NCBI RefSeq assembly: GCF_036971445.1 | Contig: NC_091477.1 | Coordinates: 81,220,001 to 81,284,000 of the forward strand | Origin: Narcine bancroftii | Taxonomy: Eukaryota | Reading direction: 5' to 3' | Length of the DNA stretch: 64,000 nt | Shown here: in pieces, positions 7,456 to 64,000 of the stretch | How positions within the stretch are numbered: the first letter of the stretch is position 1 | Layout: every line of letters starts with the position of its first letter | Notes under the pieces: generated by a model | Databases searched by the model: none | Told to the model about the DNA's origin: nothing | The model's input: only the letters and a program-made list of their open reading frames with translations | Made by a program: the position numbers and the translations under genes

Positions 7456-7595
7456 AATACGGGATCAATGGCAGTCTTCCTTACCCATGATCCCTCATGT
7501 AGCTGGAACTGCTCTGCGTATCCCTGGCTCTGGCAGAGTGGTTCTGGCTATGTGGAGGGATTATAGGTAACAAAAATGATCCTTGCTCCCGCATT
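7456..7595. repeat. Foldback hairpin repeat (second copy at 46836-46970)
   Basis: Arms GGGATCAATGGCAGTCTTCCTTACCCATGATCCCTC and GAGGGATTATAGGTAACAAAAATGATCCTTGCTCCCG; homologous to the reverse complement of 46836-46970. Confidence 0.7.
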
Positions 7596-10500
7596 GAGCC
7601 ATTGTGGCGATCTGGTGAACACCGGGCTTGGCACTGCACCTCTTCTGCCATGTCGGGAATTAGATTGGGCGGGGGGGGGGGGGGGGGGGTGTGGGGCATA
7701 TTCATTAGCATATTGTTACAGACAGCCTACAAGCTGTCCGCAAAAATGTCTGGAGCTGCCACAGGAAAAATTCCCGTCAGGAAATAGCTTCTAACTCCTG
7801 TCTGGAACTTTTAACACAGCCAGCGTTGCAGGAATTTTCTGAGAGATTCCCATCATGCAGGAGCAGTGTAAAAAGCATTTATTTTTGTTTCATCAAGAAA
7901 TAGCAAAAGCACAGGATACAACAAAGGCTGTAGGAGAAGACAAAATCTCAATACAGATTTGAAGCCCTGTGATCCACAACTATCTTAAACCATTTCATTA
8001 AAATTGCAACATTACAATACTAATATCTACCCAAAATATGGAAAATTGTCCAGGTATGGCCTATTCAAAAAAAATCAAAACAAATCCAATTACCGCTTAC
8101 GTTCCTCAAACAATTAATGATGGAAGGCATCATTGCAGTGATCTGATGGTTGGCTCCTCCCCCAGGCTCCACCCTCATCTTCCCATATATAATCCAGGTT
8201 TTCCATCTAAATCCAGAGCCCTACTGAAGACATTTGTAAGACCTTACCCTTTGTTATAAGCTAATAAAAGCGCGTGTTCTCCCTCCAGTTGTGAGAGCTT
8301 TTATTCGCGCTACAATTTTATTAGCTTATTAACAAAAAGATGGAGACACTGCTCAAACCGAGCATGACCTCTGTCCCCAAATGCTGCTGAGGAGTTTGCT
8401 TACTGGCTGGACTGCTTCCAGGCCTACCTGAACGTGACCATGACCAGGTGCGTGTTCAATACTGATGAACTTGAGGTCAGCCTTTGTTTCCAGTGTAGGG
8501 ACTAAGTGGTATGCAGTCATTCAGGACTGTGCAACCTATGATGCTGCCATTGAGGCTTTGTACTTGAAGTCGCAAAACGAGGTCCTAGTGAGATATCGAT
8601 TTGCTTTACATCACCAGCAGCCTGGAGAGACAATCGATGACTATCTGCTTGACCTGTGGACTCTTGCCAAGAAGTGCCAGTATGAAGTGGCTATCAGCCG
8701 TGTTCGTGAGGAAAAGTCACGGGGTCTGCTCGAGATATGTGAGGCAGTGACTACTTGAGTCAGGTAAGAAAGACTTGCCCAACCAAGTCCATTGAACAAG
8801 CCCAGCTCAAGGCCGACGACCTTGAGGCCAACAACAACACTCTTCCCTGTGATCCCTTCCCAGAACCGGCAGCCCTCTCTGCCCTTGACCTAATGGCAGC
8901 CACCTCCCATGCTAGAGAGCACTCCCGCACTAGGGAGTGCTTCTTCTGTGGTAGAAGCCAGCATCCTCGTGCTCGCTGCCCACCTATGGACTGCCTGCTC
9001 CAGCTGAGGGAAGAGGGGACACTGGGCAAAAGTCTGCCACGTGAAGAGAACACCTAGGAAATCCACAGTCTGCACAGATCCCAAGTCAACTCCAGCCACA
9101 AGCCATCACACTCAACCCGAAACTCACCAGAGCCTACCTGCTGCGCTACTCGCCAAAGGAGGATGGCAATGGGAAAATGGCACGAAAATCCTCGGCGGCC
9201 ATCTTGCCGCGATTTGAATTCGAATTTAGCACCATCGTCATCAGAGGAGGAGGAAGGGTGGCCACCTTGCCGAGCAACGAGGTCAACGTCATCTTGCCTG
9301 CCGGTGCATCAGTAAGGAGGAGATTGCTTGAGCAAGGAGGACTACGGAGTCTCCAGGGTCCTAGCATTGATGGTTCTGGACCAAGAAAGACCACATCAAC
9401 TAGCAACTCTATAGCGACTGTCAAGGTAAACGGACACCCAACTAGATGCTTAATTGACACTGGCTCTACAGAAAGTTTCATAGACTCTCAGACTGTTTGG
9501 GAATACAAACTTAAACTTTATCCTCGTAATTATCGTATATTTCTAGTGTCTCATTTGCACTCGACTCGTATCCAAGAACTATGTACTGCACATTTATCTT
9601 TTGAAGGGGGGAATTTTGTAAATTTCGGTTGTATGTGCTTAATGATTTCTGTGCTCCGGTACTGTTGGGACTTCTTGTGTCTCCTTAAAAGCATGACCTT
9701 GGAGTATTCTGGTCCCCTCCCTCCCATAACAGCTCAGAATGGAAGGCCATTAAAATCAAATCCCACATGCAGCCTCTCCACACTTATCGATCCCCCACCC
9801 CTCTTCCCAAACCTGTCTCCAGATTGCAAGCTGATTGCTACAAAGAGTAGGCGGTGCAGTGCCTCTGATTGGGAGTTCATAAAAATCAGTGACTCAATGC
9901 TTGTTCAATGAGAAAATCAATGAACCTATAGCTTGTGGAGAGCGCTAGTGGTTATAGTAAAAGATAAAAATAAGTTCAGGGTAGTAATTAACTAGAGCTA
10001 AACAATTAATCATTTCATACTCCTGGACGGATATCCCCTTCCTCGAATTTCAGATTGATATCTGAATTATATTGCGCAGTATTTGAGCATCAACCTGAAG
10101 CATGCCTATCACCAGCTGCCAATCCGTTCCGAGGACTGTCCCTATATTGTTTTTAAGGCAAACGGTCGTCTCTTTCAATTCCTGCGGGTCCCTCTTGATA
10201 TTACCGATGGGGTTTCTATCTTCCAGAGGCAGATGGACAGGATGGTGGATGAGTACAAGTTGAAGGCTACCTTCCCTTACCTCGATAATATCATCTGTGG
10301 CCACACCTTGGAGGATCATAACACGAACCTTCAGAGCTTTCTCCACGCGGCAAAATCCCTGAACCTACATGGTGAAGAATGGTATTATTGGCCCCAACCC
10401 CGATAGGATGCGCCCCCTTTTAGAACTCCCTATTCCAAGGACCATGAAAGCTTTGAGGAGAAGCCTGGGGTTTTTCTCATATTACGCCCAGTGGGTCCCT

Positions 10501-11436
10501 CAATACGCCGATAAGGTTCGCCTCCTTTTAAAATTCACTAGCTTTCCCCTCTTGGCTGAAGCCCAAATGGCTTTTACTTATGTCCAAAGCCACATTGCAA
10601 AAGCCACCATGCACGCAGTGGATAAGAATGTACCTTTCCAAGTGGAAAGTGATGCTTTGGATGTGGATCTGGCCGTTACCCTTAATCAGGACGGCAGGCT
10701 AGTGGCATTTTTCTCCCGGACCCTGCAAGGGCACGAGCTCTGGAATCCCTCTGTGGAGCAAGAGGTTCAAAGTCATTGTGGAAGCACTATCTGGCTGGTA
10801 TGAAATTTACACTCCTCACTAACCAGCGCGCTGTCACCTTTATATTCAATGACGTTGAGGAGCAAAATTAAAAATGACAAAATTGATAGGTGGAGGTCCA
10901 AACTCTCCACCTACAATTATGACATTGCCTTATTGAGCCTCCAGATGCCTTATCCAGAGGAAGCTGTGCCTCAGCACATACCGGCCAACTGCCATTTCTA
11001 CATAATAAGCTCTGCCATCCAGAGGATATCCAAATGGCTCACTTTGTCAAGGCACACACAATCTGCCCTACTCAATGGAAGATATCAGGGAAATGACCAG
11101 GTCCTGCCAGGTCTGCGCAGAGTGCAAGCTGTAGTTCTACCACCTCGTTAAGGCGCACCTGATAAAGTCATCCCAGCCCTTCGAATGGCTCACAAATGGG
11201 AACACATTGATGAGTACTCCCATGTCCAGATACCTCCACCTCCTCAGTTATCAAGGCCCTAGATTCTATTTTTACCCTGGTCGAGTATCCCAGCTATATT
11301 CATAACAACTGGGACTCATCATTTATGAGCAAGGAGCTACGTCAGTACCTGTTGGCAAGGGGCATCGCATCCAGCAGGACTACTAACTACAACCCCTGGG
11401 GGAATGAGCAGGTTGAAAAAGAAAATGCCATGGTCT

Positions 11437-12238
11437 TTCTTTTTTCTTTGGCTTGGCTTCGCGGACGAAGATTTATGGAGGGGGTAAAAGTCCACGTCAG
11501 CTGCAGGCTCGTTTGTGGCTGACAAGTCCGATGCGGGACAGGCAGACATGGTTGCAGCGGCTGCAGGGGAAAATTGGTTGGTTGGGGTTGGGTGTTGGGT
11601 TTTTCCTCCTTTGCCTTTTGTCAGTGAGGTGGGCTCTGCGGTCTTCTTCAAAGGAGGTTGCTGCCCGCCAAACTGTGAGGTGCCAAGATGCACGGTTTGA
11701 GGCGATATCAGCCCACTGGCGGTGGTCAATGTGGCAGGCACCAAGAGATTTCTTTAGGCAGTCCTTGTACCTTTTCTTTGGTGCACCTCTGTCACGGTGG
11801 CCAGTGGAGAGCTCGCCATATAACACGATCTTGGGAAGGCGATGGTCCTCCATTCTGGAGACGTAACCCACCCAGCGCAGCTGGATCTTCAGCAGCGTGG
11901 ACTCGATGCTGTCGACCTCTGCCGTCTCGAGTACTTCGACGTTAGGGATGAAAGCGCTCCAATGGATGTTGAGGATGGAGCGGAGACAACGCTGGTGGAA
12001 GCGTTCTAGGAGCCGTAGGTGATGCCGGTAGAGGACCCATGATTCGGAGCCGAACAGGAGTGTGGGTATGACAATGGCTCTGTATACGCTTATCTTTGTG
12101 AGGTTTTTCAGTTGGTTGTTTTTCCAGACTCTTTTGTGTAGTCTTCCAAAGGCGCTATTTGCCTTGGCGAGTCTGTTGTCTATCTCATTGTCGATCTTGC
12201 CAGTTTACCTATCTCGGCTGCACCATTTCATCAGATGC
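11437..12238 (-). mobile_element. 5'-truncated RTE (BovB-like clade) LINE with 5' inversion, inserted in Gypsy A integrase
   Basis: RLPKIVLYGEL..GAPKKRYKDCLK..C-terminal zinc finger; GAA/A-rich tail; 12-bp TSD ATGCCATGGTCT at 11425-11436 and 12235-12246. Confidence 0.93.
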
Positions 12239-12298
12239 CATGGTCTAGAAACTGTCAAATTGATCCTCAAGCCAAGAGGCCTTCCAGACTCATGCTCC

Positions 12299-12507
12299 CA
12301 GGATGTCCTACCCATAGCGCTCCACACCTTTCGGTCGCTACTCTGTACAGCGACCAATGTGACTCTTCAGGATATCCTACCCATGGCGCTCCACACTTTT
12401 TGGTCGTTACTCTGTACAGCGACCAATGTGACTCTTCATGATGCCCTACCCATGGCGCTCCACGACCTTTCGGTCGCTATTCTGTACAGCGACCAATGTG
12501 ACTCTTC
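12299..12507 (+). repeat. 69-bp x3 tandem repeat within integrase coding sequence
   Basis: Unit encodes QDVLPIALHTFRSLLCTATNVTL; three copies, the third with a 1-nt insertion. Confidence 0.92.
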
Positions 12508-13814
12508 ATGAACTTTTCCTCAATTTTGAAACGAGATCGGCATCGGGAACCACTGTCCCCACCTGGCTCACCACATCAGAAGCAAAACCGACACCCTGGT
12601 GGAGAGGGTGAGACTGCTCCATGCCAATTCCATGTACACCTACACGGAGTACCAGGACGACAGGGAAGACACCGTCTCTATCAAGGACATGGTACCCGCA
12701 GGAACAGAGAATCCATTGCCTCAGGTGACCCACGAGTTCCAGAACCCTTTCTTACCACCTCCAATCAGGACCTCAGGAGATTTGGATCAGGAGGAAGAGT
12801 CCTCCCCCTCCGTCATGGAAACAGAGCCCTAACCATCCACCATGCCTCCCCTACAAGGGGACCAGGAGACCCAAGGCCCACTGGTGCTGAGGCACTCCTT
12901 CAGGATTTCCAGACCCCTGTAACATTTAAATTGTATATATTCTGATTTTTTTTTTTACTGAGTCTGTGTTCTCTGTCTTCATTCACAGGCCATAATTTTA
13001 CAGGATGGGGTGAATGCAGTGAATGGAGATGCACTGGTGATGGGTTGTGCAAATGACAGACTCCTCCCCCAGGCTCCGCCCCCATCTACCCATAACCCAG
13101 GTTTCCAGCCTGAACCCAGAGCTCTACTGAAGACCCTTGTAAGACCCTATCCTTTGTTATAAGCTAATAAAACATGTGTTCTCCATCCAGTCGTGGGAGC
13201 TTTTATTCATGCTTCAATCAACAACACTGACATCAAAACGCAGTCGCTCACCAAAGACCTGCCCACTAAAACCACATTTGGGTTTTCTCAACACAATTCT
13301 TTTCCTGAACAGATTGCAGATTTGATCAAGCTGGGAACAAACACCTTAATTATAAAGGTTAGGCAACACTGACCTACTTTGATATCAAGACAGCAATTGA
13401 CTAAGAATGGAGTCAAGACACCCTGATAAAACTAGTCAGTGAGACAAAACTAGACAGGACATTACAATGATCAGAACCATATGTTGCACTCAGAAAGATG
13501 TTTCTATGGTTAGTGAAAGTTAATCTCAGTCTCAAGAAATTAAGTACCACATAATTACTTTAGCACAAACCCGAAAGCACAACATCTATATTTCTTTCAT
13601 CAATGACCTTTCTTCCAGGTCAGATGTAGGGTGTTGGTTGATAATTGCACTGTTAAATTTCATTTGCAACTCCTCAGAAAATGAAGCAATCTATGCGATA
13701 TTCTAGGTGTGGAGTGATAGGTGACAGCTAACACTCAGGTTACCAGTGATAGGCAATAACCATCTCCTACAACAGAGGTGAAGCACAGGATTCTGTTGAC
13801 ACCATGGTTAAGTG

Positions 13815-19557: not shown

Positions 19558-22500
19558 TCACGTGTGACGCCATAAGAACAAGACTTGGGCTTACAGATAT
19601 CGGACAGAGGATGAAGACTCAGAAGAAGAGATAAAGAGTAAACAAAGTACTAGAATTGCTATATCTATGAAAAGAAATGACTATTAGTGAGCTGTTTAAT
19701 GTGAAGGGGGAAATAAGTAGTGTTGGAGGCTGTCAACAAGACGAAGAAAAAATTAAATTAGAAAATTCAATGAAGAGAGTACAAGAGGTTATGCAGCATG
19801 TTGAAGATAGAGTTACCACTGAGGAAGATACTACTACTACCTTAACAATGAAGAATAAGAAGCTGCAACAAAAATTGGATGTATTAGAAAATTTTAGTGG
19901 GAGAAATAATGTTAAGATTGTGGGTCTTAAAGAAGGTGTAGAAAAACAAGATACTCCTGCTTTTCTTTTGGAATGGCTCTCTGAAATGTTGGGAGCTGAA
20001 AATTTTGATCATCCTATAGAGATTGAAAGAGCACAGAGCTTTCAGACGTCCAGCTCTCTAATTCAAAACTCACATTCTATACTGGTAAAATGTCTTTGTT
20101 TTCAAGATAGAGAGAAGATTTTGTCAATGATAGCAGAAGATGAGATTGGCAGGGGTTCTGCTTGAGTACGAAGGTGCAAGAGTCTTATTTTTCCTGATAC
20201 AAGTGCTGATCTACTTAAAAGAGGAAGAGAATTCAACCCAGTTAAGAACGTTTTATGGGAGAAGGGATACATATCTGTTCTGCGCCATCCAGCGATGTTG
20301 AAGATTTTTATACCGGGGTGAAGGAAACAAATTATTTATGAATATGATGGAAGCAGTAGAGTATGCTTAGAGTCTCCCAATTATTCAGAAGGAGTGAAGA
20401 ATGAGGACTTCTTTTCATCCTGGTTGATTTTTGACGAATTGCTCGCTTTGCTTTCACAGCAAGGAGTGATTTAAAATGCTTTACATTGATTTATTCTTTT
20501 CTATCCTTATATTTATCTACTATTAATGTGATGTATGTTTTTTTTAACTGAAGTTTGAAGTAAGATTTGATGGTCAAATGTATCAGAGGGTTAGGGAGAG
20601 TAGGGTTCTGACCTCTGGTGCGTCATGTGGGTAGTCGTGACTCTGGTCAAGGCCCGTAAAATATTTTCTCTCAACGCCTATTGAGAGGAATTTTTTTTCT
20701 ACTTTTTTTTTAATAGTTATATGTATTTTTATATACAAGTTTCTTTCTTTTTTCTATTGCATCTGGATTGTCGGAGGGGAGGTTCTTGAGTATGCTGGCT
20801 TTTTTCTACAATAACATTAAGGAGTGAAGAATTACAGGCAGAGGTGGAAGAAATATTGAAACAGGAAGATGAGAATGTGCTTAAACTCAAATTATATTGT
20901 TAATGGTTTAAATGGGACCGTGAAGACGAAAAGGGTTTTGAGGTATTTTTAAAAAGTTAGGTATAGATATAGTTTTTTTTACAAGAAACGCTTCAAACAG
21001 AAAAAGAACATTTGAAGTTAAAAAGAGACTGGGTTGGACATGTAGTAGCTTCCTTTAATTCTAAAGAGGAGTGGTTATTTTAATTAAAAAGAATATACCA
21101 ATTAAAATACAAAATGCAGTGCTAGATCCAGCAGAAAGCTATGTAACAGCTCATTGTCAAATACTTTCAGAATTATGGACATTTCTTAATATCTACACAC
21201 CAAATGCAGATTATGAGAGATTTATCAAAGAGACCTTTATGAATTTAGCAGAAGCACATGACAATATTTTGATAGGAGGAGATTTAAGTTTTAGTTCAGA
21301 TCAAATCTTAGATAGAACTACAAGGGGAATGTCAAGAACAAAAGCAGCAAAAGCAACCTTGGTTTAGATGAAAGATCTGAATTTAATAGATGCTTCGAGA
21401 AAAATTCATCCTAGAGAAAGAGACTATGTGGCGGCAAGCTACTAGGCAGGCGACTCAGCCCCGCTTGTAATCCACGCGGCGGGGTAGCCAGCCAAAATGG
21501 CGCCATCAGAGGTTTCCCCTTCTCAGCACCGGGCTCAGAAGCCCGTGCTGGGGGACCACATGACGCCCGAGTGACGTCGGCGCCCCCCAGCACGGTTCCC
21601 AGCCAGGTCCGGGCTGGGAGTACAAGTCCATCCCAGAAGCCAGCAATAAACCAGTTTTCTGCTCACTGAGCTCAACCCGTCTGGTTGTGTGTTCTTTCAG
21701 TAGCAGTGTAGCTGCTGCTACAACTATTCCTTTTATTCAAATAGGCATAATTCTTATTCTAGAATAGATTTGTTTTTTAATATCTGTTTAATTAAAAGGT
21801 AGGATATTGAGTATGGAATATAAAATGAAAATATTGTCAGATCATTCATCTTTGTTAATGACAATTACAAATTACAAATAAAAATTGGTATATAGATGGA
21901 GATTAAACTCAACATTATTAAAAAGGAAAGATTTTTATGACTTTGTTAGAAATCAAATTCAATTGTGTGATACGAACAAACAAGGTCGAGAATAAATTTC
22001 TAATTTGGGATGCATTAAAAGTGTATTTGAGAGGTCAAATTATAAGATGTGGAGATGAAATGGGCACTTTTTTTAAATACACACTCTATTTGGTCATGTT
22101 CAAAGGTTAGAATTTTTTGGGAGGATCAGGGAATGTTTTTGGGACAAATTACTCGTATTACTTTTCTACAAAATCCAGACCTATTTTTGTTGGGGAACCT
22201 TGCAGGAACAAGACCTAAATTTACTAATTCATCAAGATAAATTTGTTAAAATTGCTTTCGTGGTGGCAAGAAAGTGTATCAAAGTGACCTGGAAATCAGA
22301 CATATACTTAGGTATGGAAAGATGGCATTCGGAGATACAAGCATGTATTCCCTTAAAGAAAATTATTTTCAATTTAAGAAATAAATATTCTCTCCTTGTG
22401 CAGATCTGGAGCCCATATATGCAAAGGTTAGGAATAATTTTTTTTAAAAAGTACTTCTGGCCTCCTAAGTCAGTATTAATCTTCTTCCCTGAAAGTCACA

Positions 22501-41934: not shown

Positions 41935-44900
41935 AGCCCTTTTTATAGAGTGACACTGCATTGAAGCCGGCTCAATGAGGAAAAAAAAAAGGACATCCCT
42001 TTTAAGGTGAAGGTCTACAAAGCTGATTGTGGTGTACTGTTAGCCAGAATCAGACACACACAAGGTAAAGACTGGACAACAGACTTTAATCCACAAAGAC
42101 TTCCACAGAGCCAGGCTGGCTGTGGCTGCAGCAACTCTGAGTGAGGCCTCAGGAGGCCGGCGCAGGCTTATATCCCGGTGGGTGATTGACACTCGACTGG
42201 GTGGGGCTTGATCCATTCAGGCCGATTGATTGACAGCACCCGTAGTGCTGCAGGTATAGAGGTTGCCCCCTGCAGTAGGCCGGTGGTGTACCACCACATT
42301 CACCCCCTTCTTTAAAATTGTCCTGGGGAGGGGGGAGGGCAGCAACAAGGAATCGCACCCACTATGTACATACAATATTTACAGGTTGAGACGATTGGGC
42401 GGCCGCTGGGGTCTCTGTGACCGTCGTAGGACTGGCTCCTGGTCACTGGTCAGATGGGAACTGGGGGGGGGGGGGGGGAGGGGCTGGCAGCAGGGGTGTG
42501 TGGCTGGTCGTATTGGATGGGTGGGGGGGCCGGTTCATCTTGTAAGGCTGAAGTGGGCCACTGGCGGTCAAGGAGGCCCTGTGTGCCCCATAGCTGCCTG
42601 GGGACAGGGATGTATGCCCAGTCAGCGTTGAGTTGGAGGGTGGTGTGGTGTGTGCTCCTGCTGGTGACAGGTCCCTGGTTGAGACGGTGTCCTCCCTGCC
42701 ACTGCTGAACCCAACGTAAGCATAGTTATGGTTTGCATGAAGGAGGAAAATCTGCTCTACCAGGGCTTCAGCCTTGTGTGTCCGTACATGCTTACGCAGA
42801 AGCACCGATCCCGGGGATGTGAGCCATGCTGGGAATGTCATTCCAGTCGCCGACCTCCTGGGGAATGAGAACAGGCATTCGTGAGGGGTCTTGTTGGTAG
42901 CCAAACACAGCAGTGACCGAATGGCACGGAGTGCCTCGGGCAGGGCGTCCTGCTAGTACTCAACGGCCCACCCTTTTGACTTGAGAGCCAGGAGGACTGC
43001 CTTCCAGACTACCCAATTCTCACGTTCCACTTGCCCGTTGCCTCTTGGGTTATAGCTTGTCGTGCGACTGGTCGCAATGCCCCTCGCCATCAGGTACTGG
43101 TGCAGCTCGTCACTCATGAAACTAGACCCCTGGTTGTTGTGGATGAAGGTGGAGTAGCCAAACAGTGAAAATCTGCCCCAAGGCCCTGATGACGGTATCC
43201 GTGGAGGTGTCCGGACAAGGGATGGCGAAAGGGAAGCATGAATACTCGTCCACTACCGTGAGGAAGTAGACGTTTCGGTTCATGGAAGGCAGGGGCCCTT
43301 TGAAGTCCATGACAAGATGCTTGAAAGGCCGAGTAGCATTTACAACGTGGGCTTGGGTGGGGGGGGGGGGGGGGGGGGGCTGAAGAAGCGGGGTTTGCAC
43401 TCCGCACAGACCGACAGGCCTCGGTCATGTCCCTGACGGTGTACGGCAGATTTCAGGACTTAAAGAAATGGTACAACCAGGTGACGCCAGGATGGCAGAG
43501 AGAGAGACTAAAAATGCCTGCAACCTGTCATCATGAATAGCTGTATTCATGCTGTAGGTTGCCAACTGGACTCTCCAGTGCAGGATCTTGTCTTTCTTGA
43601 TCTTGCTCTTGTGGGTAGTGTTAAACATGGTCTGTGAGGAGCGTGAATCTCCTGCCGGCCAGGTAGTGGCGCCAGTGGCAGACCGCTTCCACAATTGCCT
43701 GGGCCTCCTCTTCAATGGCTGAGTTCCCTAGCTTGGAGCCGTGGGGGGTCCTGGAGAAGAAGGCGACGGGGCGTCCCCTTTGGTTGCGGGTAGCAGCGAG
43801 AGCCACCTCGGAGGTATTGCTCTCCACCTGGAAGGGGAGTCTTCATCCACAGCCTGCATTGTGGCATCCGCGATGTCTTGCCTGATGCAGGTGAAGGCTG
43901 CCTGTGCCTCAGGTGGGAGGGGAAAAAGTTGTGGCTTGAGCCAGAGGGCGGACTTTGCCCGAGAAGCAAGGAACCCACTGCGAATAATAAGAGAACAGGC
44001 CCAGGAACCTGCGGAGGGCCTTTAGCTTGAGGGGGGTGGAGGGGTAACTCCATTAATGGGCGCATCCTTTCTGGATCTGGGCCTACGAATCCATGGGCCA
44101 CGATGTATCCCAGGATGGCAAGTGGGTGGTGCTGAACACACACTTCTCCTTGTTGTAAGTGAGGTTCAGCTCCGTGGCCATCTGGAGGAATTTTTCCAGG
44201 TTAGCATCGTGGTCCTGCTGGTCACGGCCACAGATAGTGACGTTATCCAGATATGGAAACGTCACCTTCAGCTTGTGCCGGTCCACCATGTGATCCATCA
44301 CCCGCTGGAAGACAGAGACCCCGTTCGTGACCTCAAAAGGAACGTGGCGGAACTGGTACAGGCACCCGTCTGCCTCAAAGGCAATGTAGGGCTTGACCTT
44401 CGGGTGGATAGGAATTTGGTGATACGCAAACTTCAGGTCAATCGTGGAGAAAACCCGGTAGTGGGCTATCTCATTGACCATGTCGGTGATCCTTGGCAGG
44501 AGGTAGGCATCCAGCTGGGTGTACCGATTAATGGTCTGGCTGTAATCCACAACTATCCTCGGCTTACTTTCCTCTTTGACCACCAGGACTTGGGCTCTCC
44601 AAGGGCTGTTACTGGGCTCTATAACGCCTTCCGCAGGAGTCGCTGCTCCTCCGCCTTGATGAAGTCCCTGCCTGCAGTGCAATAGCGCCTACTTCTGGCG
44701 GCAATTGGCTTGCAGCCTAGCACAAGATGTGGAAAGAGTGCCAGTGGGGTGATGCGTAGTGTGGAGAGGCCGCTGGTTGGCCGGGGCTGGTAGGTTGGCG
44801 AGCTTTGCAATGTGAGTGGAGGTTGGGGTAAGGGTGACACTCTGCAGGTGGCACTGGAAATCCAGGCCCAGGAGGAGTGGTGCGCAGAGTTTGGGCATGG

Positions 44901-47494
44901 CCAAGAGCCTGAATCCTGTGTAAGTCTCCCCTCCCAACGTTATATCGACCGAGGAGCACCAACAGTCTTATCCTTGGCGGCGAGGGCGATCGAGCAGGTA
45001 GTGGGGTGGACCTTTAACCTTAGAGAGCGGGCCACGCTCAGGTGAATGAAGCTCACAGTGCTGCCACTGTCCAACAGGCACTTTGTTACCTGCCCATTGA
45101 CTCGCACGTCCATCATCGAGCGCCCGAGGTCGTGGGGAATGTCCCTGGTCAGCGTGGTGGCAGCCAGGAGCGTCTCGGAGTTGTCACTATCCGGAGGGGT
45201 GGGGAGTGTCAATAGGGCGGCCTGGTCATCGCCCGTGTTGACCACGTCGTTCTCAATGTCGTCGGGGGCCCTCCACGTCGGGTGCTATTGGCCCAAGATG
45301 GTGGGACATGTGGGGGGACGCTGCATGGCTGGCCTCCTTCCCCAGTTGTGTCCGCTGCACTGCGGGAAATGACTTCATCACGGCTGGCGACAGTGACGTA
45401 GTTACGTCAGTCAGAAGTAATGTCACGCCATGAGCTGGAAGTGATGTCGCTGTAGTTCTCAGTGAGCAGTGCCAGCGAGGGCGGGGGCTGGTGCAGATAC
45501 TCAGGGCACATGCTGTGACGGTCGCTGGTGGGGCCGGATGTTGCGTGGTCCAAGTCGGTGAAGGGGGAAGTCGTCGCGGGGACAATGGCGCCGCCCGGCA
45601 CGCACACATAGGGGGGTCCGCAGGGGAGGACATAGAAGACCGCTGAGCTGCCGGCAGGTTTACAGAGGCACACTTTTGCAAAGTGGTCTTTCTTGCCGCA
45701 TTGGGAACAATACTGGTTGCTAGCTGGGCAGTTTTGGCACGATCGTCAATCTGACCCACACCAGGACCCACAGTACTTACAGGGACGCCGGGTGCCTGCC
45801 GCAGCTACGTTCTCCTCCCCAGCTTCGCTTGGGGCTGCAGCTGGAGTGTGAGAAGCCCATGAGGGAGCCTGGGAGAACTTGGAATCGAAGGTTTTGACGT
45901 GCAGGGCTGCTGCTTCCATGGTTTGGACCACTTCCACAGTCCTGGTTAGGGCATAGATGTTGTCTTCCAGCAGCTTCTGCCGGATGGCCCTCGAGCATAG
46001 CCCTCAGATGAAGGTGTCCCAGATCAGCCTCTCAACCTCCTCTACACCTACCCCAGGTTCAGCTAGACATGGTCGGGCCAACTCTCGCAAGTGTCTCAGG
46101 TAAGACTCAGCCATCTCCCCGGGTTGCTGGGCTTGGATGTTGAGGAAGTACATTGATGGGGGGCTTGTACAAGTTCTCGAGAGTGTCCATTGCGCTCTTG
46201 TACGTAGAACAGCCTTTGGTTACCTGGAAGGCGCGGGGACCCGCTTTGAATGGAGTAGGACCAACCTCTTCTGATTGGAGTCCAGGATGTCGACCTCGTC
46301 TGCCTTGACCATGTACTGCCAGATCTCGAAGCATGACTGGGCTTCCGGGTGGTGTGGGTAAACCTTGAGGCTCCCTGAGCGCAGGAGTTTTTCCATAGCC
46401 ACCGTGGGAAAATTTGTGGATTAAATTGTGGTGCGCTGTTAGCCAAAATCAGACACGCACAAAGTAGACTGTACAACAGGCTTTAATCCACAAAGACTTC
46501 CACAGAGCAAGGCTAGCTGTGGCTGCAGCAACTCTGAGTGAGGCCTCGGGAGGCCGGCGCAGGCTTATATCCCGGAGGGTGATTGACACCCAACCGGGTG
46601 GGGCTTGATCCATTCAGGCTGACTGATTGACAACCGGCCAGGTGTTGTCCTGTCTTCTTACACTCCTGAAGGTACAGAGGTTGTCCTCTGCAGTAGGCCG
46701 GTGGTGTACCACCACACTGATCCAGTGTTGCCTTTATGGAAAGCAGCTTTGGAAGCCATCCTCCAGAGCTGAGGGAGGTGGGCGAGTGGTGCAGTAGTGC
46801 TGCCTGTCGACATGACATCAAACATATGCACCAAGCAATGGCCATCTTTGTTACCCATAATCCCCCATGCAGCTGACATTGCTCTGTCAGTGCCAGGGCC
46901 AGGGAAATGAAGAGCAATTTCAGCTGCGTGGGGGATTATGGGTAATGAAGACAGCCATTGATCCCGCATTAAAGGAAAAAGAGGTTCTCGTTATAAAACC
47001 TGAGGCTCCTTCTTCCAATCTTCTGCCCAGCATTTACAGGTGGCAGCTTGAGTTATTTGAGGTCATTTCACTTTTGTAATCAATCTGATTTTCTGCTGTT
47101 TGTGGTATTTAATGTGCTCTTGGGTATTTTAATAAAACGTGATCAACACTGAAATCAAGGCTGAGCTCCACAGTGGGACACATATGCATGGCCCTCGGTC
47201 TCTCCATAATCAGCAGCACACTAGGCTGTGACACCCCGAGCTATTCCCAGCACCAGTGAGAGCCCTGGATGGTGGCTCCTGGGTCACAGGCTGACTGCAT
47301 AATTGTGACATCATTAGCCTGCCCCTTTACAGCCACTTGCAGCTGCACTGCCTTTATGGAGGAGTGCACCCTCAGGACAGATCGGAGTTCGCGTGTAGAA
47401 TCCACCCTCTGAGCTTTAATGAAGATAAGTTAAGCAATGTAAAGGCAGAGAATATCCGCATTTACACTTGCTATTTTCTCACTATAAAAAGGCC
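41935..47494 (+). mobile_element. Harbinger-like family 2 element split by Gypsy B
   Basis: TIRs AGCCCTTTTTATAG and CTATAAAAAGGCC; the halves (41935-42027, 46717-47494) are collinear with 18030-18638. Confidence 0.65.
42028..46716 (-). mobile_element. Gypsy LTR retrotransposon B (decayed; YLDN lineage)
   Basis: 5' LTR 46427-46716, 3' LTR 42028-42298; perfect 5-bp TSD CTGAT; PPT AAAGAAGGGGGTGAA; gag MEKLLR; PR LLDSGSTVSF; RT SPWRAQV..IDLKFAYHQIP..FPYLDNVTICG; RH GRPVAFFSRT; IN MDFKGPLP..VDEYS. Confidence 0.95.
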
Positions 47495-47538
47495 GTAAAA
47501 TATCACAAAGAAAGGACCACTTCTAGTCTACCATGTTG

Positions 47539-48916
47539 TCTTCTTCTTCTTTGGCTTGGCTTCGCGGACGAAGATTTATGGAGGGGGTAAAAAGTCCACG
47601 TCAGCTGCAGGCTCGTTTGTGGCTGACAAGTCCGATGCGGGACAGGCAGACACGATTGCAGCGGTTGCAAGGGGAAATTGGTTGGTTGGGGTTGGGTGTT
47701 GGGTTTTTCCTCCTTTGCCTTTTGTCAGTGAGGTGGGCTCTGCGGTCTTCTTCAAAGGAGGTTGCTGCCCGCCAAACTGTGAGGCGCCAAGATGCACGGT
47801 TTGAGGCGTTATCAGCCCACTGGCGGTGGTCAATGTGGCAGGCACCAAGAGATTTCTTTAGGCAGTCCTTGTACCTTTTCTTTGGTGCACCTCTGTCACG
47901 GTGGCCAGTGGAGAGCTCGCCATATAACACGATCTTGGGAAGGCGATGGTCCTCCATTCTGGAGACGTGACCCATCCAGCGCAGCTGGATCTTCAGCAGC
48001 GTGGACTCGATGCTGTCGACCTCTGCCATCTCGAGTACTTCGACGTTAGGGGTGTAAGCGCTCCAATGGATGTTGAGGATGGAGCGGAGATAACGCTGGT
48101 GGAAGCGTTCTAGGAGCCGTAGGTGGTGCCGGTAGATGACCCATGATTCGGAGCCGAACAGGAGTGTGGGTATGACAACGGCTCTGTATACGCTTATCTT
48201 TGTGAGGTTTTTCAGTTGGTTGTTTTTCCAGACTCTTTTGTGTAGTCTTCCAAAGGCGCTATTTGCCTTGGCGAGTCTGTTGTCTATCTCATTGTCGATC
48301 CTTGCATCTGATGAAATGGTGCAGCCGAGATAGGTAAACTGGTTGACCGTTTTGAGTTTTGTGTGCCCGATGGAGATGTGGGGGGGCTGGTAGTCATGGT
48401 GGGGAGCTGGCTGATGGAGGACCTCAGTTTTCTTCAGGCTGACTTCCAGGCCAAACATTTTGGCAGTTTCCGCAAAGCAGGATGTCAAGCGCTTTAGAGC
48501 TGGCTCTGAATGGGCAACTAAAGCGGCATCATCTGCAAAGAGTAGTTCACGGACAAGTTTCTCTTGTGTCTTGGTGTGAGCTTGCAGGCGCCTCAGATTG
48601 AAGAGACTGCCATCCGTGCGGTACCGGATGTAAACAGCGTCTTCATTGTTGGGGTCTTTCATGGCTTGGTTCAGCATCATGCTGAAGAAGATTGAAAAGA
48701 GGGTTGGTGCGAGAACACAGCCTTGCTTCACGCCATTGTTAATGGAGAAGGGTTCAGAGAGCTCATTGCTGTATCTGACCCGACCTTGTTGGTTTTCGTG
48801 CAGTTGGATAATCATGTTGAGGAACTTTGGGGGACATCCGATGCGCTCTAGTATTTGCCAAAGCCCTTTCCTGCTCACGGTGTCGAAGGCTTTGGTGAGG
48901 TCAACAAAGGTGATGT
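47539..48916 (-). mobile_element. RTE LINE, 5'-truncated, with open RT reading frame (ORF 47601-~48915)
   Basis: FVDLTKAFDTV, GVKQGCVLAP, LLFADD, C-terminal C2H2-like motif; (GAA)n tail; nearly identical to 11437-12238. Confidence 0.95.
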
Positions 48917-50398
48917 TACCACCATCCTCTATAATCAAGATCAACAAGAAACTGTGTCGCTTTCCATTTCCTGAGTGCCACCTTTCAATAACTGCAGTCA
49001 AAGACAAAATTCTACAGTCATTCCAGTGCATGAGCACAGTCAATTAAAGCATTTGAAAACCAAGTCCTTGACATTACATCGATTTTAGTTAATTGAACAA
49101 TACCCTGCTCGTGTCTGTTTCAGACGGAAATCCTAGGCATCTCGGACCAGGTATTCCTTCTTTAGCAGGAGAGGCAAACAACCCCTACTTTAAAGTACTG
49201 ATCACACTCAACTAGCCCACCAAGTCAATCAGTTGCCTGAATTCGTACTCCTGAAACAAGAACTTTTTCTTCAACTTCCAGGAGGAATGAGCAATATCTA
49301 AAAAGTAATTATTGGTCTCAATTCAAAAAATGACATCTTCATTGAGCATGGGAATCCATTGCTCATAAATACTAAAAGAAGAGCAGAAACATCTGGAATT
49401 GAGCAAGTCCAGGCTAACAGAGATCTCATCCCATTCTTCTATAATCTGATGTGAGCATATAGAAATCATATACAAAGGATTGAAAAAATGAACCACGAAG
49501 ATATGTCACTCAACTTAGCCAAGCAGAGTGAAACACAAAAGTCTGTCGATGTTATGACTGTAGTAAAAGCACAAAGAAATGCTGGAGGAACTAAGGGCTT
49601 TGATCTGAAACTTCCTAAGGATGCTGCAAGACCAGCTGAGTTCCTCCAACATTTCTGTGTGTTCTGATCCAACAGTAGGGTCTGCAGACTCTTGGGCTAT
49701 TTAAGAACTTAAGGAAAAATTTTGTTCTGAACCACAAAGGAGTTCTGAAAAGACTTTCTGCCACCAAACCAACATTATTCCACTTTTCGTGAATCCAATA
49801 GGCTTCAACTAATAATTATATCACTTGTGACCTTGTTAAACAACTTGCTAACGATCCACATATACACTAAATGTTTTATCTTCAAACTTCCTCATTACCA
49901 AAGCTTCAATTCAGACAGATTCTTCTTTAACAAATCCAAGCGGACTGTCCTTGATCAACTGGTACCTCCCTAAATAGTGCTCTATGCCTCTCCTTATAAT
50001 GTTTGCAAATGTTTGCTCACAACCACTACAAACTAATTACCTGAATGATGAAGAGATCATTCATCTTGATAACCATGGTATCTCATCAACAATTTCAGTC
50101 TTTTGGCATCATGGTTGCTATAGATGACACTTTCCAGGTTCTAATATATCCTAATTTCAAAACGTGTTATCTTCAAGGAAACGTGGGCTACAATATTCTG
50201 AATTACTATCTTTTTAATCAACTAAACCAAACTTTGTAGATGCAGCTTTATGTGGCTTTAATTCATTGATAAAACAGATAAACATTTTGCAAAAGTTCAC
50301 ATTGAGATTTTCATAACAATGTACTGTATTTAAAACTATAACAATATTTAACTTTAGAGATATACAAGAAGAAATAAGACAAATTCAAAGAAAATTAC

Positions 50399-60545: not shown

Positions 60546-61450
60546 GACTACATCAACCCTTGTTCCATGGTGGATTGCAGGAGGGTACAGAGACCAACAC
60601 CAGACATCCTTAAAATGAGAATGTCAAAATAGCAGTCTCAAAGCAGGACTACATCATGCAAAAGCGGAAAAATTACATTTGAGAGAGCCAAGTTATCCTA
60701 CAACTAGCAGATCAAAGTTCTGCTGTCCTGCTCCATCTGATTATGAATGTTGATGGGCAACTAGAATCCACAGGTAACTGTGCTCTAAGTGTACATCCAT
60801 CGTCTTTGATGGCATGGCTCAGCACCCATGCTCCAAAGACAAAGAAATAGCATTTTATCTTTAAGCACCTTCAGCTCGAGTTGTTTGGACAATCCATCTC
60901 TGTTTCCTCCATTAATCCTCATCATCAAAAGCTAGATTAGAACTAATTCAATTCACTCCACAAGTGGAGTGCATTTGATGCAGAAAATCCAATGGAACAA
61001 GACAACAGGTCAGCTATAATACCGAACGCAAGCTCCAAAATTATATGGCCACCTAAAGCTGTCCCAGTATATTAAAACATCAACTTCCAGTTAACAATGT
61101 AAAAACTGCCAAACTACAAAAAAAGGGGAAAAAAATAAAGTAAAATAGAAGGTGCAGACAACTTAGCCTCTCATACCACATCTGTTGTCCATTAAGATCA
61201 TCATTTACCTCAGAATCAGTTTGATTATTGGTCAATTAGTACATCCTCGACCACAGAAGCCACAGGAAGTGATAGTGTTCACTCTCCAATAATGATCTTC
61301 AATGGCTTGTTTGGATTTCACCAAGTCTACTTCATCTTGTTGCAGCTTTGGTCAAAACATGGGCCAAGCTACTGAATTCTAAAAGCTACACAAGATTGAT
61401 GGTTCATCATCAAGGCAGCATTCACTGACTGTGATAAAAAGAAGCCCTTT

Positions 61451-64000
61451 TGCGGGCACACCTCTAGGCAGGTGAACCGGCCCCGCTTGTAATCCAGACC
61501 GCGGGGCAGCCTGCCAAAATAGCGCCGTAGGGGGTTTACCCTTCTTCTCAGCACAGGGTTCAGAAGCCTGTGCAGGGGGACCACGTGACACCCGGGTGAC
61601 ATCAGCACCCCTCAGCGCAGTTCTCAGCCAGGTCCGGGCTGGGAGTACAAGTCCAGCCCAGCAGCCTGCAATAAATCAGTTCTGCTCACTGAGCTCAACC
61701 CGTCTGGTTATGTGTTCTTTCAGTAGCAGTGTAGCTGCCACTACAATTGGTGACACTGACTGGTTCAAACATCTTTGAACCCATCATGAGCGAACCTGGG
61801 ATCACTGCTATAGCCGTCAAGCTGCCTGAATTCTGTGTTCAGGAGTCGGAGAGCTGGTTCGGCCACGTGGAGGCTCAGTTTCACCTCTGCCAGATTTCAT
61901 CTGACACGACCAAATTCTACCATGTGGTCGCTGCCCTGGACCAGGCCACCGCCAAGTGCATGCTGTACCTCATTCAGCACCCACCCGCCGAAGACAAATA
62001 CGAGACCATCAAGTGAGTGCTCACCAAATTCCTCGGACTAACCAGGCACCAGCGTGCCACTCGGATGCTGCACCTCGACACCCTGGGGGACAGGTCCCCA
62101 ATGGAGCTAATGGACGAGATGCTCACGCTCATGGGTGATCACACCAACTGCCCACTCTTCGAGTGCATTTTCCTCGATCATCTGCCCGAGGACATCCGGC
62201 CGTTACTGGCCCAAGAGAGCTTTACCGAGCCGAGGAAGGTTGCTCAGAAGGCCCAAGAGCTATGGCTCGAGCGATTCCCGGAGGGCTCGGCGGTCCAGCA
62301 GGTCACGAGGCACAGGCATGACCACAACAAGCACGACCCTAGCACTGAGGTAGAGCATCCGGCCCCTGCAGGGGCCACTAAGAGCATAACCAGGGTCACG
62401 GCATCCGCTCCAGGCCTCTGCTTCTACCACCAGCACTGGGGAGCCAAGGCTCAGAAGTGTCGTCAGCCCTGCTCATTCCAGGGAAACGAGCAGGCCGGCC
62501 GCTGTTAATGGCTGCGGCGGCTGGCCAAAGACACAGCCTCCTCTACCCACGGGACTCAGTCAGCGGCTGGCGGTTCCTCGTCAACAATGGGGTCCAGATC
62601 TGGAATTCTTCAGCCAGCTTCTCCGCCCACCAGAGCATAAGTATAGTGCTTTTGACTCTGAGTTACTGGGCATGTACCTGGCAGTGCGGCATTTCCACTA
62701 TTTCTTGGAGGGGAGGACTTTTACCATCTTCACTGACCACAAACCACTCATCCAGGCACTAGTGATGGCGAAGGACCCCTGGTCGGTCCACCAGCAGCGT
62801 CACCTCTCCGTGTCGGAATTTACCACCGACATTCGGCACAAGGCGGGGATGGTCAACGTGGTTGCCAATGCACTCTCACGACCGACCATCTGCGAGCTGA
62901 TGCCTGGCCTCGACTTCGACCAGCTCACCCGGGACCAGAAGACCGATGAGGAGACACGAGCCTTCAGGACTGCCATTACGGGCCTACAGTTCCGGGACCT
63001 CCCGACTCGGAGCGGTGGAAGCACCATCCTGTGTGATGTCTCCATGGGCACCCTGAGGCCAGTGGTTCCCCAGCAGTGGCGCAGGCAAGTCTTCCATCAC
63101 ATCCACGACCTTTCGCACCCTTCCATCTGGTCCACGGTCATGATGGTGGCACAGCGGTTCGTCTGGCACAGGCTGCGGAAGCAGATCACGGGCTGGGCCA
63201 GAACATGCACCCATTGGCAGATGTCCAAGGTACACAGGCACACCAAGGCGCCCGTGCATGTATTCAAGCATGTCCAGGAACGGTTCAGCCACATTCACGT
63301 GGACATAGTCGGGCCCTTACTCATTTGCCGGGGCAACCGTTACCTGTTCACGGTGGTGGACCACACCACTCGGTGGCCCAAGGAGATCCCAATGCCTCCA
63401 CGAACACCTGCTCCCGAGCACTGTTGCATGGTTGGGTCGCCTGGTTCGGTGTTCCGAATCACCTCACCAGTGATCGAGGTGCCCAGTTCACCTCTGCATT
63501 CTGGGCACAGCTCGCCAACAGGTTGGGGATCGAGCTACACCACAGCCTATCACACACAAGCCAATGGGCTGGTCGAGCGTCTGCACCGGCACCTTGAGTC
63601 AGCACTTATGGCCCCCCTTACCGGTCCCAACTGGGTGGACGAATTGCCTTGGGTGATCCTGGGCATCCGCTCCATGCCGAAGGAGGATCTGCAGGTGTCA
63701 TCAGTTGATCTGGTCTACAGCGCATCGCTGGCACTTCCTGTGAATTAATCAACGCACCTCACAACCCCCAGCAGTCTGTTTCCCCACCTCCAGACCCGCT
63801 GGGACTCCTCCGCAGAGACACGGAAAATGGCCATCTCACGTCCCCAGCGAGCTGCTTTCCGTAGAGTACGTTTTTATTCAGCGTGGCCCATCCATGGCAC
63901 CTCTGCAGAGACCTTATGAGGGGCCGTACAAGGTTGTCCAGCTTTCATGGTCTACGTTCACACTGGACATCGGCGGCAGGCAGGAACTGTTTACTGTGGA
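61451..64000 (+). mobile_element. CsRn1-like Gypsy element: 5' LTR, gag, partial PR/RH, integrase; RT deleted; runs off the window
   Basis: LTR 61451-61745; tRNA-Trp-like PBS TGGTGACACTGAC; gag AVKLPEF..WF..EAQF..TKFYHVV with CHCC finger CFYHQHWGAKAQKCRQPC; RH FTDHKPL; IN HIHVDIVGPL, YHTQANGLVER, RPYEGPYKV. Confidence 0.9.

Follow-up and report, generated by a model that had tools for sequence, protein, structure and literature searches.

A broken Ty3/Gypsy retrotransposon in the window (the whole 64,000-nt stretch of the Narcine bancroftii genome analysed here) carries, one base past its 5' LTR, a perfect 13-nt complement of a stretch of that same LTR. The duplex recurs in 42 related families, in a fixed register with the LTR end, with compensatory changes in its two arms and with no primer site of the tRNA type. 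We consider self-priming the most likely function of this site, in a new layout and in a lineage whose proteins showed no chromodomain of the Tf1/sushi kind.

The putative primer-site duplex of element B

The element, which we call B, lies on the minus strand (46716-42028) of a 3.3-Gb genome, the closest named proteins of which are those of rays and sharks, and has the TG...CA LTRs, target duplication and polypurine tract of Ty3/Gypsy elements (Table 1). Its gag-pol region is full of stops and frameshifts, with the gag ATG at 46396; the Ty3/Gypsy order of the pol domains, and Ty3 as the closest solved structure, were scored on relatives, B itself being broken and its RT confirmed. Loose contig ends accumulate at 46716, the edge of the 5' LTR. 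An Rfam search of 46300-46800 gave no match, and no relatives were found in viral contigs.

The end of the LTR was set from the LTR pair and the 5-bp ATCAG duplication, and the pairing was not used for it. The LTR ends in CA, one A follows, and the next 13 nt (TTTAATCCACAAA) are the exact complement of the LTR stretch TTTGTGGATTAAA, as the first-pass annotation had claimed; the cut is predicted between 46482 and 46481. This complement lies within the first 22 nt past the LTR, while the 817 other internal windows of B gave at most 9 nt and the longest complement in 2000 dinucleotide shuffles of the LTR was again 9 nt, so that the equally long matches at random positions that could have spoken against the pairing were not there. 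Loss of the complement from the family, the other doubt raised at the outset, was not seen either: all 13 pairs are intact in 22 of 30 copies and none has fewer than 10 (these copies, which include that of the window, are the best-scoring 30 of 40 scored among 4759 candidates, not a random sample).

The folding model favours the 13-bp duplex, with a predicted probability of 0.93 in the window copy (mean 0.67), and at above 0.5 in 35 of the 42 families. Folding the leaders of B and of its relative A (see below) had been proposed as a check, and it upheld the duplex, but the folding energy of the whole region was ordinary in B (z -1.39) and modestly unusual in A (z -2.88). Beyond a small loop, the duplex of B is predicted to extend into a second helix (46504-46497 with 46411-46404, minus strand), ca. 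25 nt upstream of the cut, which would fit an RNA that starts well ahead of the paired stretch. An inner stem, GCCTGTT/AACAG(C)GC, had also been described. It is present as sequence, since 206 of 210 cells in the 30 copies are pairable (the bulged base is C in 16 and T in 14), but its predicted probability is 0.07 in the window copy and 0.19 on average, exceeding 0.5 in four of the 30 copies. Across the families, the first three bases past the cut were paired at 0.59 versus 0.42 in shuffles (0.51 in the best shuffle set); the length of the stem beside the cut was not raised (4.3 versus 3.9, with 4.5 in the best set), and the position of the partner varies between groups, sometimes forming a local hairpin. 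These models thus lend partial support to an inner stem in B and in the clade.

It could be argued that the match arose by chance, or by a one-off local inversion within A+T-rich DNA, given that the duplex is rich in A+T and the whole-region fold of B unexceptional. We regard this as extremely improbable, as it is refuted by the family and clade controls, that is, the windows and shuffles above together with the own- versus foreign-LTR match and the covariation described in the next section.

Element A, which spans 8134-13216 on the plus strand, has the same layout. Its LTRs had been said to look unrelated to those of B, and blastn gave no significant match between the two (best E 0.85). The +1 offset, the pairing over the hexamer and the nearby gag ATG (8340 in A, 46396 in B) are nevertheless common to both, as had been noticed, and all 13 pairs are kept by 13 of 30 family-A copies, none having fewer than 10 (again the best 30 of 40 scored, from 3675 candidates). 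What has to be abandoned is the idea that the copy in B is independent: over 153 residues, the RTs of A and B share 53% identity, compared with 26-30% for other Gypsy lineages of this genome, which places them in one clade and makes the pairing a single inherited trait, not a trait with two origins. Family A has in addition a second complement of AATAAA inside U5, GCTTTTATT (8263-8272 with 8297-8305, plus strand, in both LTRs), that might be a competitor of the primer site or, at the 3' LTR, give rise to a hairpin.

Table 1. Features of elements A and B, in positions of the window.
Feature	Position	Strand	Remarks
B, target duplication ATCAG	46721-46717		beside the 5' LTR; repeated after the 3' LTR
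B, 5' LTR, 290 bp, TG...CA	46427..46716	-	from LTR pair and target duplication
B, TATA-like word GATATAAG	46564..46571	-	88 nt upstream of the duplex end
B, LTR arm of 13-bp duplex, TTTGTGGATTAAA, putative self-primer	46482..46494	-	read 46494-46482; ends in ATTAAA (46487-46482)
B, possible inner stem, 5' arm GCCTGTT	46475..46481	-	pairable; not favoured by the folding model
B, possible inner stem, 3' arm AACAGCGC	46433..46440	-	one bulged base, C/T
B, LTR end ACCACA	46432-46427	-	followed by spacer A (46426)
B, putative primer-binding site TTTAATCCACAAA	46413..46425	-	one base past the LTR end; without TGG
B, gag-pol region, broken	42313..46396	-	order protease, RT, RNase H, integrase
B, polypurine tract	42299..42312	-	ends in AA ahead of the 3' LTR
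B, 3' LTR, 271 bp	42028..42298	-	followed by ATCAG
A, 5' LTR	8134..8314	+	edges read by eye from LTR pair; duplication ATCAT/ATCAA
A, putative self-primer	8256..8269	+	with AATAAA (8263-8268)
A, putative primer-binding site, 14-nt complement	8316..8329	+	offset +1; gag ATG at 8340
A, 3' LTR	13015..13216	+	

The window also contains a third LTR element, C (61446-64000, plus strand), with a TGG-type primer site at 61749 that provides a tRNA-type contrast to the other two; by its gag and PBS features we take it to be CsRn1-like. A solo LTR of a related family is found at 21427-21724 (plus strand). A 350-bp repeat is present in two copies, 97% identical, one interrupting the integrase region of A (11428-11779) and the other just upstream of B, beside a 480-aa frame (47531-47883, the frame being 47601-49043 on the minus strand); three tandem copies of a 69-bp piece also lie in the integrase region of A (12299-12506). 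Just outside the 5' LTR of B there is an inverted repeat of 50 bp, its arms separated by 25 nt (46836-46960), which resembles a small non-autonomous DNA element and has a related copy near A (7456-7535).

Pairing and covariation across the clade

The survey comprised 90 loci retrieved by protein patterns from metagenome contigs and genome bins, whose hosts are presumably animals, 20 of the 150 gag matches in this same genome, and 40 loci picked as distinct-looking among the first 100 listed matches to a junction pattern (3430 matches, versus 288 for the reversed control), which preselects about four pairs. Some clade members (L141-L150) are filed in bacterial genome bins, probably as host contamination. 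Together with A and B, these 150 loci yielded 95 with a gag start and sufficient upstream DNA. A CA-N-TTT junction with three terminal pairs served to anchor 78 of them, which sort into 42 groups (<70% flank identity), 20 of these groups from this genome and 22 from elsewhere, related to one another and not independent. Among the 17 unanchored loci, nine had 13-14 of 14 pairs at the correct junction, L096 had 15 nt, and three were mutated copies of families already counted; no pairing was seen at four loci with a gag start (L102, L105, L115, and L140).

The 42 families carry a duplex of 13-14 bp, made from 38 different primer-site 13-mers and offset from the LTR end by +1 in 38 groups and +2 in four. 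Each of pairs 1-13 is of Watson-Crick type in 38-42 groups, pair 14 in 29-31 and pair 15 in 20. With equal search freedom, primer sites matched their own LTR at 13.3 of 14 positions and the LTRs of other families at 9.5, a sum that none of 20000 permutations reached, and the own LTR ranked first or tied in 40 of the 42 families. None of 7114 windows inside the elements had a 13-nt complement. For 31 elements the ends were set by the target duplication alone, and 24 of these (ca. half being from one young family) have a complement of at least 13 nt past the 5' LTR, against at most 8 nt in the host DNA past the 3' LTR. The same 31 elements have AA before the 3' LTR in 28 cases and AT after the 5' LTR in 25; the cDNA ends may therefore be asymmetric, with two extra bases at one end and one base before the primer at the other. 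RT homologs were found in sharks, rays, corals, a crab, a damselfly, spiders, a nematode and a sea cucumber, a host range taken from protein names only, the pairing itself having been examined in this genome and in contigs of other hosts.

The two arms change together. On a gag tree of 40 groups (all but L194 and L227; FastTree, midpoint root), pairs 4-13 underwent at most 104 changes, 93 of which hit both arms at once, while in slid controls 21-40 of 65-98 changes coincided. Seven families with an extra terminal pair were re-registered ahead of this final count; the multiple compensations that had appeared in L185 were a register artefact and were disregarded. The near-identical elements L063 and L067 are separated by five substitutions over ca. 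500 nt, and two of these make up one T-A to G-C swap. Covariation, which the first-pass annotation had proposed to check, was thus seen on this tree, and the annotation's argument that conserved pairing with changed sequence is not due to chance holds up. Wobble pairs are rare: G-U occupied eight and A-C 11 of 780 cells in the 78 copies, so that G-U was not the commoner of the two (2 and 3, respectively, in the B copies, 6 and 4 in the A copies), whereas in predicted loop pairs 65 of 453 (14%) were G-U.

Self-priming and its alternatives

In none of the 42 families is there a TGG within 6 nt of the LTR end, and some other primer is therefore needed. [quoted passage not shown] That the element primes itself, from either the 5' or the 3' copy of R, seems to us quite probable, and of the two forms we lean towards fold-back at the 5' end as in Tf1, which we judge somewhat better than an even bet. 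In this mechanism, the 13-nt stretch past the LTR would be the primer-binding site, pairing with the LTR of the element itself, and through this duplex the RNA would bend back at its 5' end. A cut directly behind the closing TAAA of the duplex, probably made by the RNase H of the element, would then free a 3' end, and minus-strand DNA would begin from it, a single base beyond the LTR. Plus-strand synthesis would copy the primer into the primer site of the next generation, which, on the standard scheme of reverse transcription, would explain the near-perfect Watson-Crick covariation.

The position of the primer within the RNA can be estimated from a TATA-like word found at -70 to -95 from the duplex end in 16 of the 20 groups of this genome, against 0 of 20 for the bins on either side, and in one of the 22 groups from other hosts, with a word list that was picked after inspection. 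In B this word predicts a transcript start near 46540. For the families of this genome the start is predicted to lie 30-50 nt upstream of the paired stretch; the primer would then be internal, inside R, and not at the cap. Contigs from four sequencing runs presumed to be RNA, a form of data in which RNA ends do not appear, show no start, end or poly(A) junction. We also considered that transcription might start at an initiator lying 11 nt upstream of the cut, with a Tf1-like primer of 11 nt, and rejected this because pairs 12 and 13 covary as well. By the established rule, poly(A) addition would take place 10-30 nt past the hexamer; the interval between cut and poly(A) site, put at 12-25 nt, would then serve as strand-transfer homology.

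The sequence itself is compatible with either copy of R and cannot tell between them. In the second form of self-priming, the 3' end of the same RNA (circularised) or of a co-packaged partner would pair with the site, be cut after TAAA, lose the poly(A) tail and prime, the whole R of 45-65 nt being used for strand transfer. Duplex and register would be identical, and this would also account for a cut site at a hexamer near the RNA 3' end and for an R that reaches well 5' of the paired stretch. We think it unlikely, since the local 5' fold, readily predicted in most families, would win during transcription, and the 5' route has the precedent of Tf1.

A different role for the duplex is suggested by the hexamer. 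AATAAA or ATTAAA closes it in 31 of the 42 groups (19 of 20 in this genome, 12 of 22 elsewhere), and in A and B the pairing probability of the hexamer is 0.95-0.99 with the primer site and 0.14-0.66 without it. In B the hexamer is found again in the 3' LTR (42090), and the complement is absent after that LTR. On the self-priming reading the duplex would conceal the 5' copy of the hexamer as well; alternatively, it might do nothing else, protecting the RNA against premature 3'-end formation while something else acts as the primer. We find this improbable. The 22 families from other hosts include 10 without such a hexamer in the duplex; L072 pairs GTTAAA, with an AATAAA found 27 nt downstream where the duplex no longer reaches, and the loops of L144 and L069 likewise contain a second hexamer. 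Hiding a signal would not need the fixed +1 register, it would leave the element without a primer, and a helix with a purely structural function should tolerate wobble, so that the scarcity of G-U fits it poorly. The pairing had originally been described as directed at the poly(A) signal, and this has to be restated: what is invariant is how the duplex is placed relative to the LTR end, together with its three terminal pairs; the hexamer, absent from the duplex of 11 of the 42 families, is not.

A host tRNA could still be involved in another way, if a 5' piece of tRNA-Thr(AGU) ending in the D-arm primed in trans and the LTR copy were a guard or a relic. The LTR arm plus 3 nt does resemble this D-arm, at a mean of 10.4 of 16 positions over the 42 families, as high as the family-to-family identity of 10.1 and reached by one of 300 shuffled tRNA sets (a post hoc comparison), and in three related families pairing with it could be complete if G-U is allowed. 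The tRNA set consisted of 27 distinct sequences with 13 anticodons from this genome (tRNA-Thr(AGU) being among loci L229-L258) and is incomplete; element C, the tRNA control, found no partner because tRNA-Trp is absent from it. The self duplex was stronger than that with any of the 27 tRNAs in 16 of the 20 groups of this genome, and stronger than that with tRNA-Thr(AGU) in 41 of all 42 families; this tRNA has two mismatches to B, and 96 of the 104 cells that break its pairing do pair with the own LTR. Priming in trans is thus disfavoured by the covariation with the LTR, and we consider it very unlikely; the D-arm likeness may hint at the origin of the motif or at a constraint on its sequence.

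One can put these elements together into a fuller scenario, in which a pan-animal, non-chromovirus Gypsy clade evolved self-priming by itself, using an internal primer whose cut site is where the hexamer ends and a single 13-14 bp duplex that both blocks premature 3' ends and supplies the primer, the motif perhaps descending from the D-arm of tRNA-Thr(AGU) by a switch from tRNA-fragment priming. As a whole we put it forward tentatively, and would rather doubt that every part of it is right.

Comparison with Tf1/sushi elements and other systems

Self-priming in Gypsy has been described as a mark of the Tf1/sushi elements, a group classed as chromoviruses (bioRxiv 10.1101/2022.12.06.519325) that includes Tf1 and Tf2 of Schizosaccharomyces pombe, Tj1, Tosmo1-3, sushi of fish and Tcn1 of plants (PMC7175516, PMC4600332, PMC6317226, PMC5341516, bioRxiv 10.1101/2022.12.06.519325). 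For Tf1 it was shown experimentally in yeast (PMC7175516; bioRxiv 10.1101/2022.12.06.519325), the primer being the first 11 nt of the RNA (PMC7175516). Like these elements, ours belong to Ty3/Gypsy, have no tRNA site and carry a primer site complementary to their own LTR, with a duplex polarity that suits a minus-strand start at the LTR end and a possible stem beside the cut. Where the Tf1 primer is the first 11 nt of the RNA, the clade has a duplex of 13-14 bp, predicted to lie within R and finishing at the poly(A) hexamer. The stem beside the cut, which Tf1 needs, is weak here; of the three-duplex "pretzel" of Tf1/sushi, one flanking stem has partial support.

The proteins also differ. [quoted passage not shown] Chromo has 16 matches in this genome; those of SH3_Tf2-1 belong mostly to another lineage, whose longest complements at the repeat ends are 5-9 nt. 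The RTs of the clade are 46-71% identical to that of B, and those of the SH3_Tf2-1-bearing elements of this genome 26-30%, on a separate branch (in a set made up of the clade and the Gypsy lineages of this genome). An abundant Gypsy lineage with SH3_Tf2-1 (L152-L160, L165) has TAATTTGG past the LTR, not directly TGG, and a self-complement of at most 9 nt. The clade probably works as Tf1 does; that it is a member of Tf1/sushi is not supported.

Cigr-1, MolGy1-16, Mag, CsRn1 and Saci-2 are also animal Ty3/Gypsy elements, and one poorly described clade among them may be the one studied here (PMC6238403, PMC3670739, PMC2582038, PMC12471100). CsRn1 relies on a tRNA-Trp site and makes duplications of 4 bp, and tRNA primers have been assigned to the families of Saci2 (PMC3670739, PMC2582038, PMC12471100); a TGG with a tRNA 3' end, as in CsRn1 or Mag, was found in none of our 42 families. 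The PBS is unmentioned in the main text of a work on animal Gypsy clades (PMC6238403), and motif searches of the Cigr-1, MolGy and Saci-2 literature and supplements gave names, with no matching sequence motif in the portions searched (PMC6238403, PMC8556966). Within the accessible open-access literature, self-priming appears only for Tf1/sushi, Tcn1 and plant TAR elements, plus the suggestion of an unknown mode for Skipper of Dictyostelium, and there is no account of this animal clade or of the hexamer link (including PMC3601003, PMC5006619, and PMC2864245). A search with gag returned automatic names only, and a candidate clade label, "Selfy", had no match in this literature and was dropped. 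Repbase entries sometimes note self-priming, and an earlier notice of the clade there is possible.

Concealment of a poly(A) hexamer that is present in both LTRs is familiar from the poly(A) hairpin of HIV-1 and the suppression of the retroviral 5' poly(A) site. In HIV-1 the hairpin is formed within R-U5 and a tRNA serves as primer, whereas in the present clade the hexamer would pair with the primer site itself, a partner that exists only at the 5' end.

Outside Tf1/sushi, self-priming has been predicted from sequence for the TAR lineage (Houba, Osr-1) of plant Ty1/copia elements, from which it was proposed that it arose more than once; these are copia elements of plants, and no link to the hexamer is described in the accessible text (PMC6317226). 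Our reading accounts for the failure of PBS-based annotation to find a primer in the clade, for which the duplex is a sequence-independent signature. If it is true, these elements might be beyond the reach of tRNA-fragment silencing at the primer site, and a second and abundant animal lineage would stand beside Tf1/sushi, in which the switch away from tRNA has occurred again.
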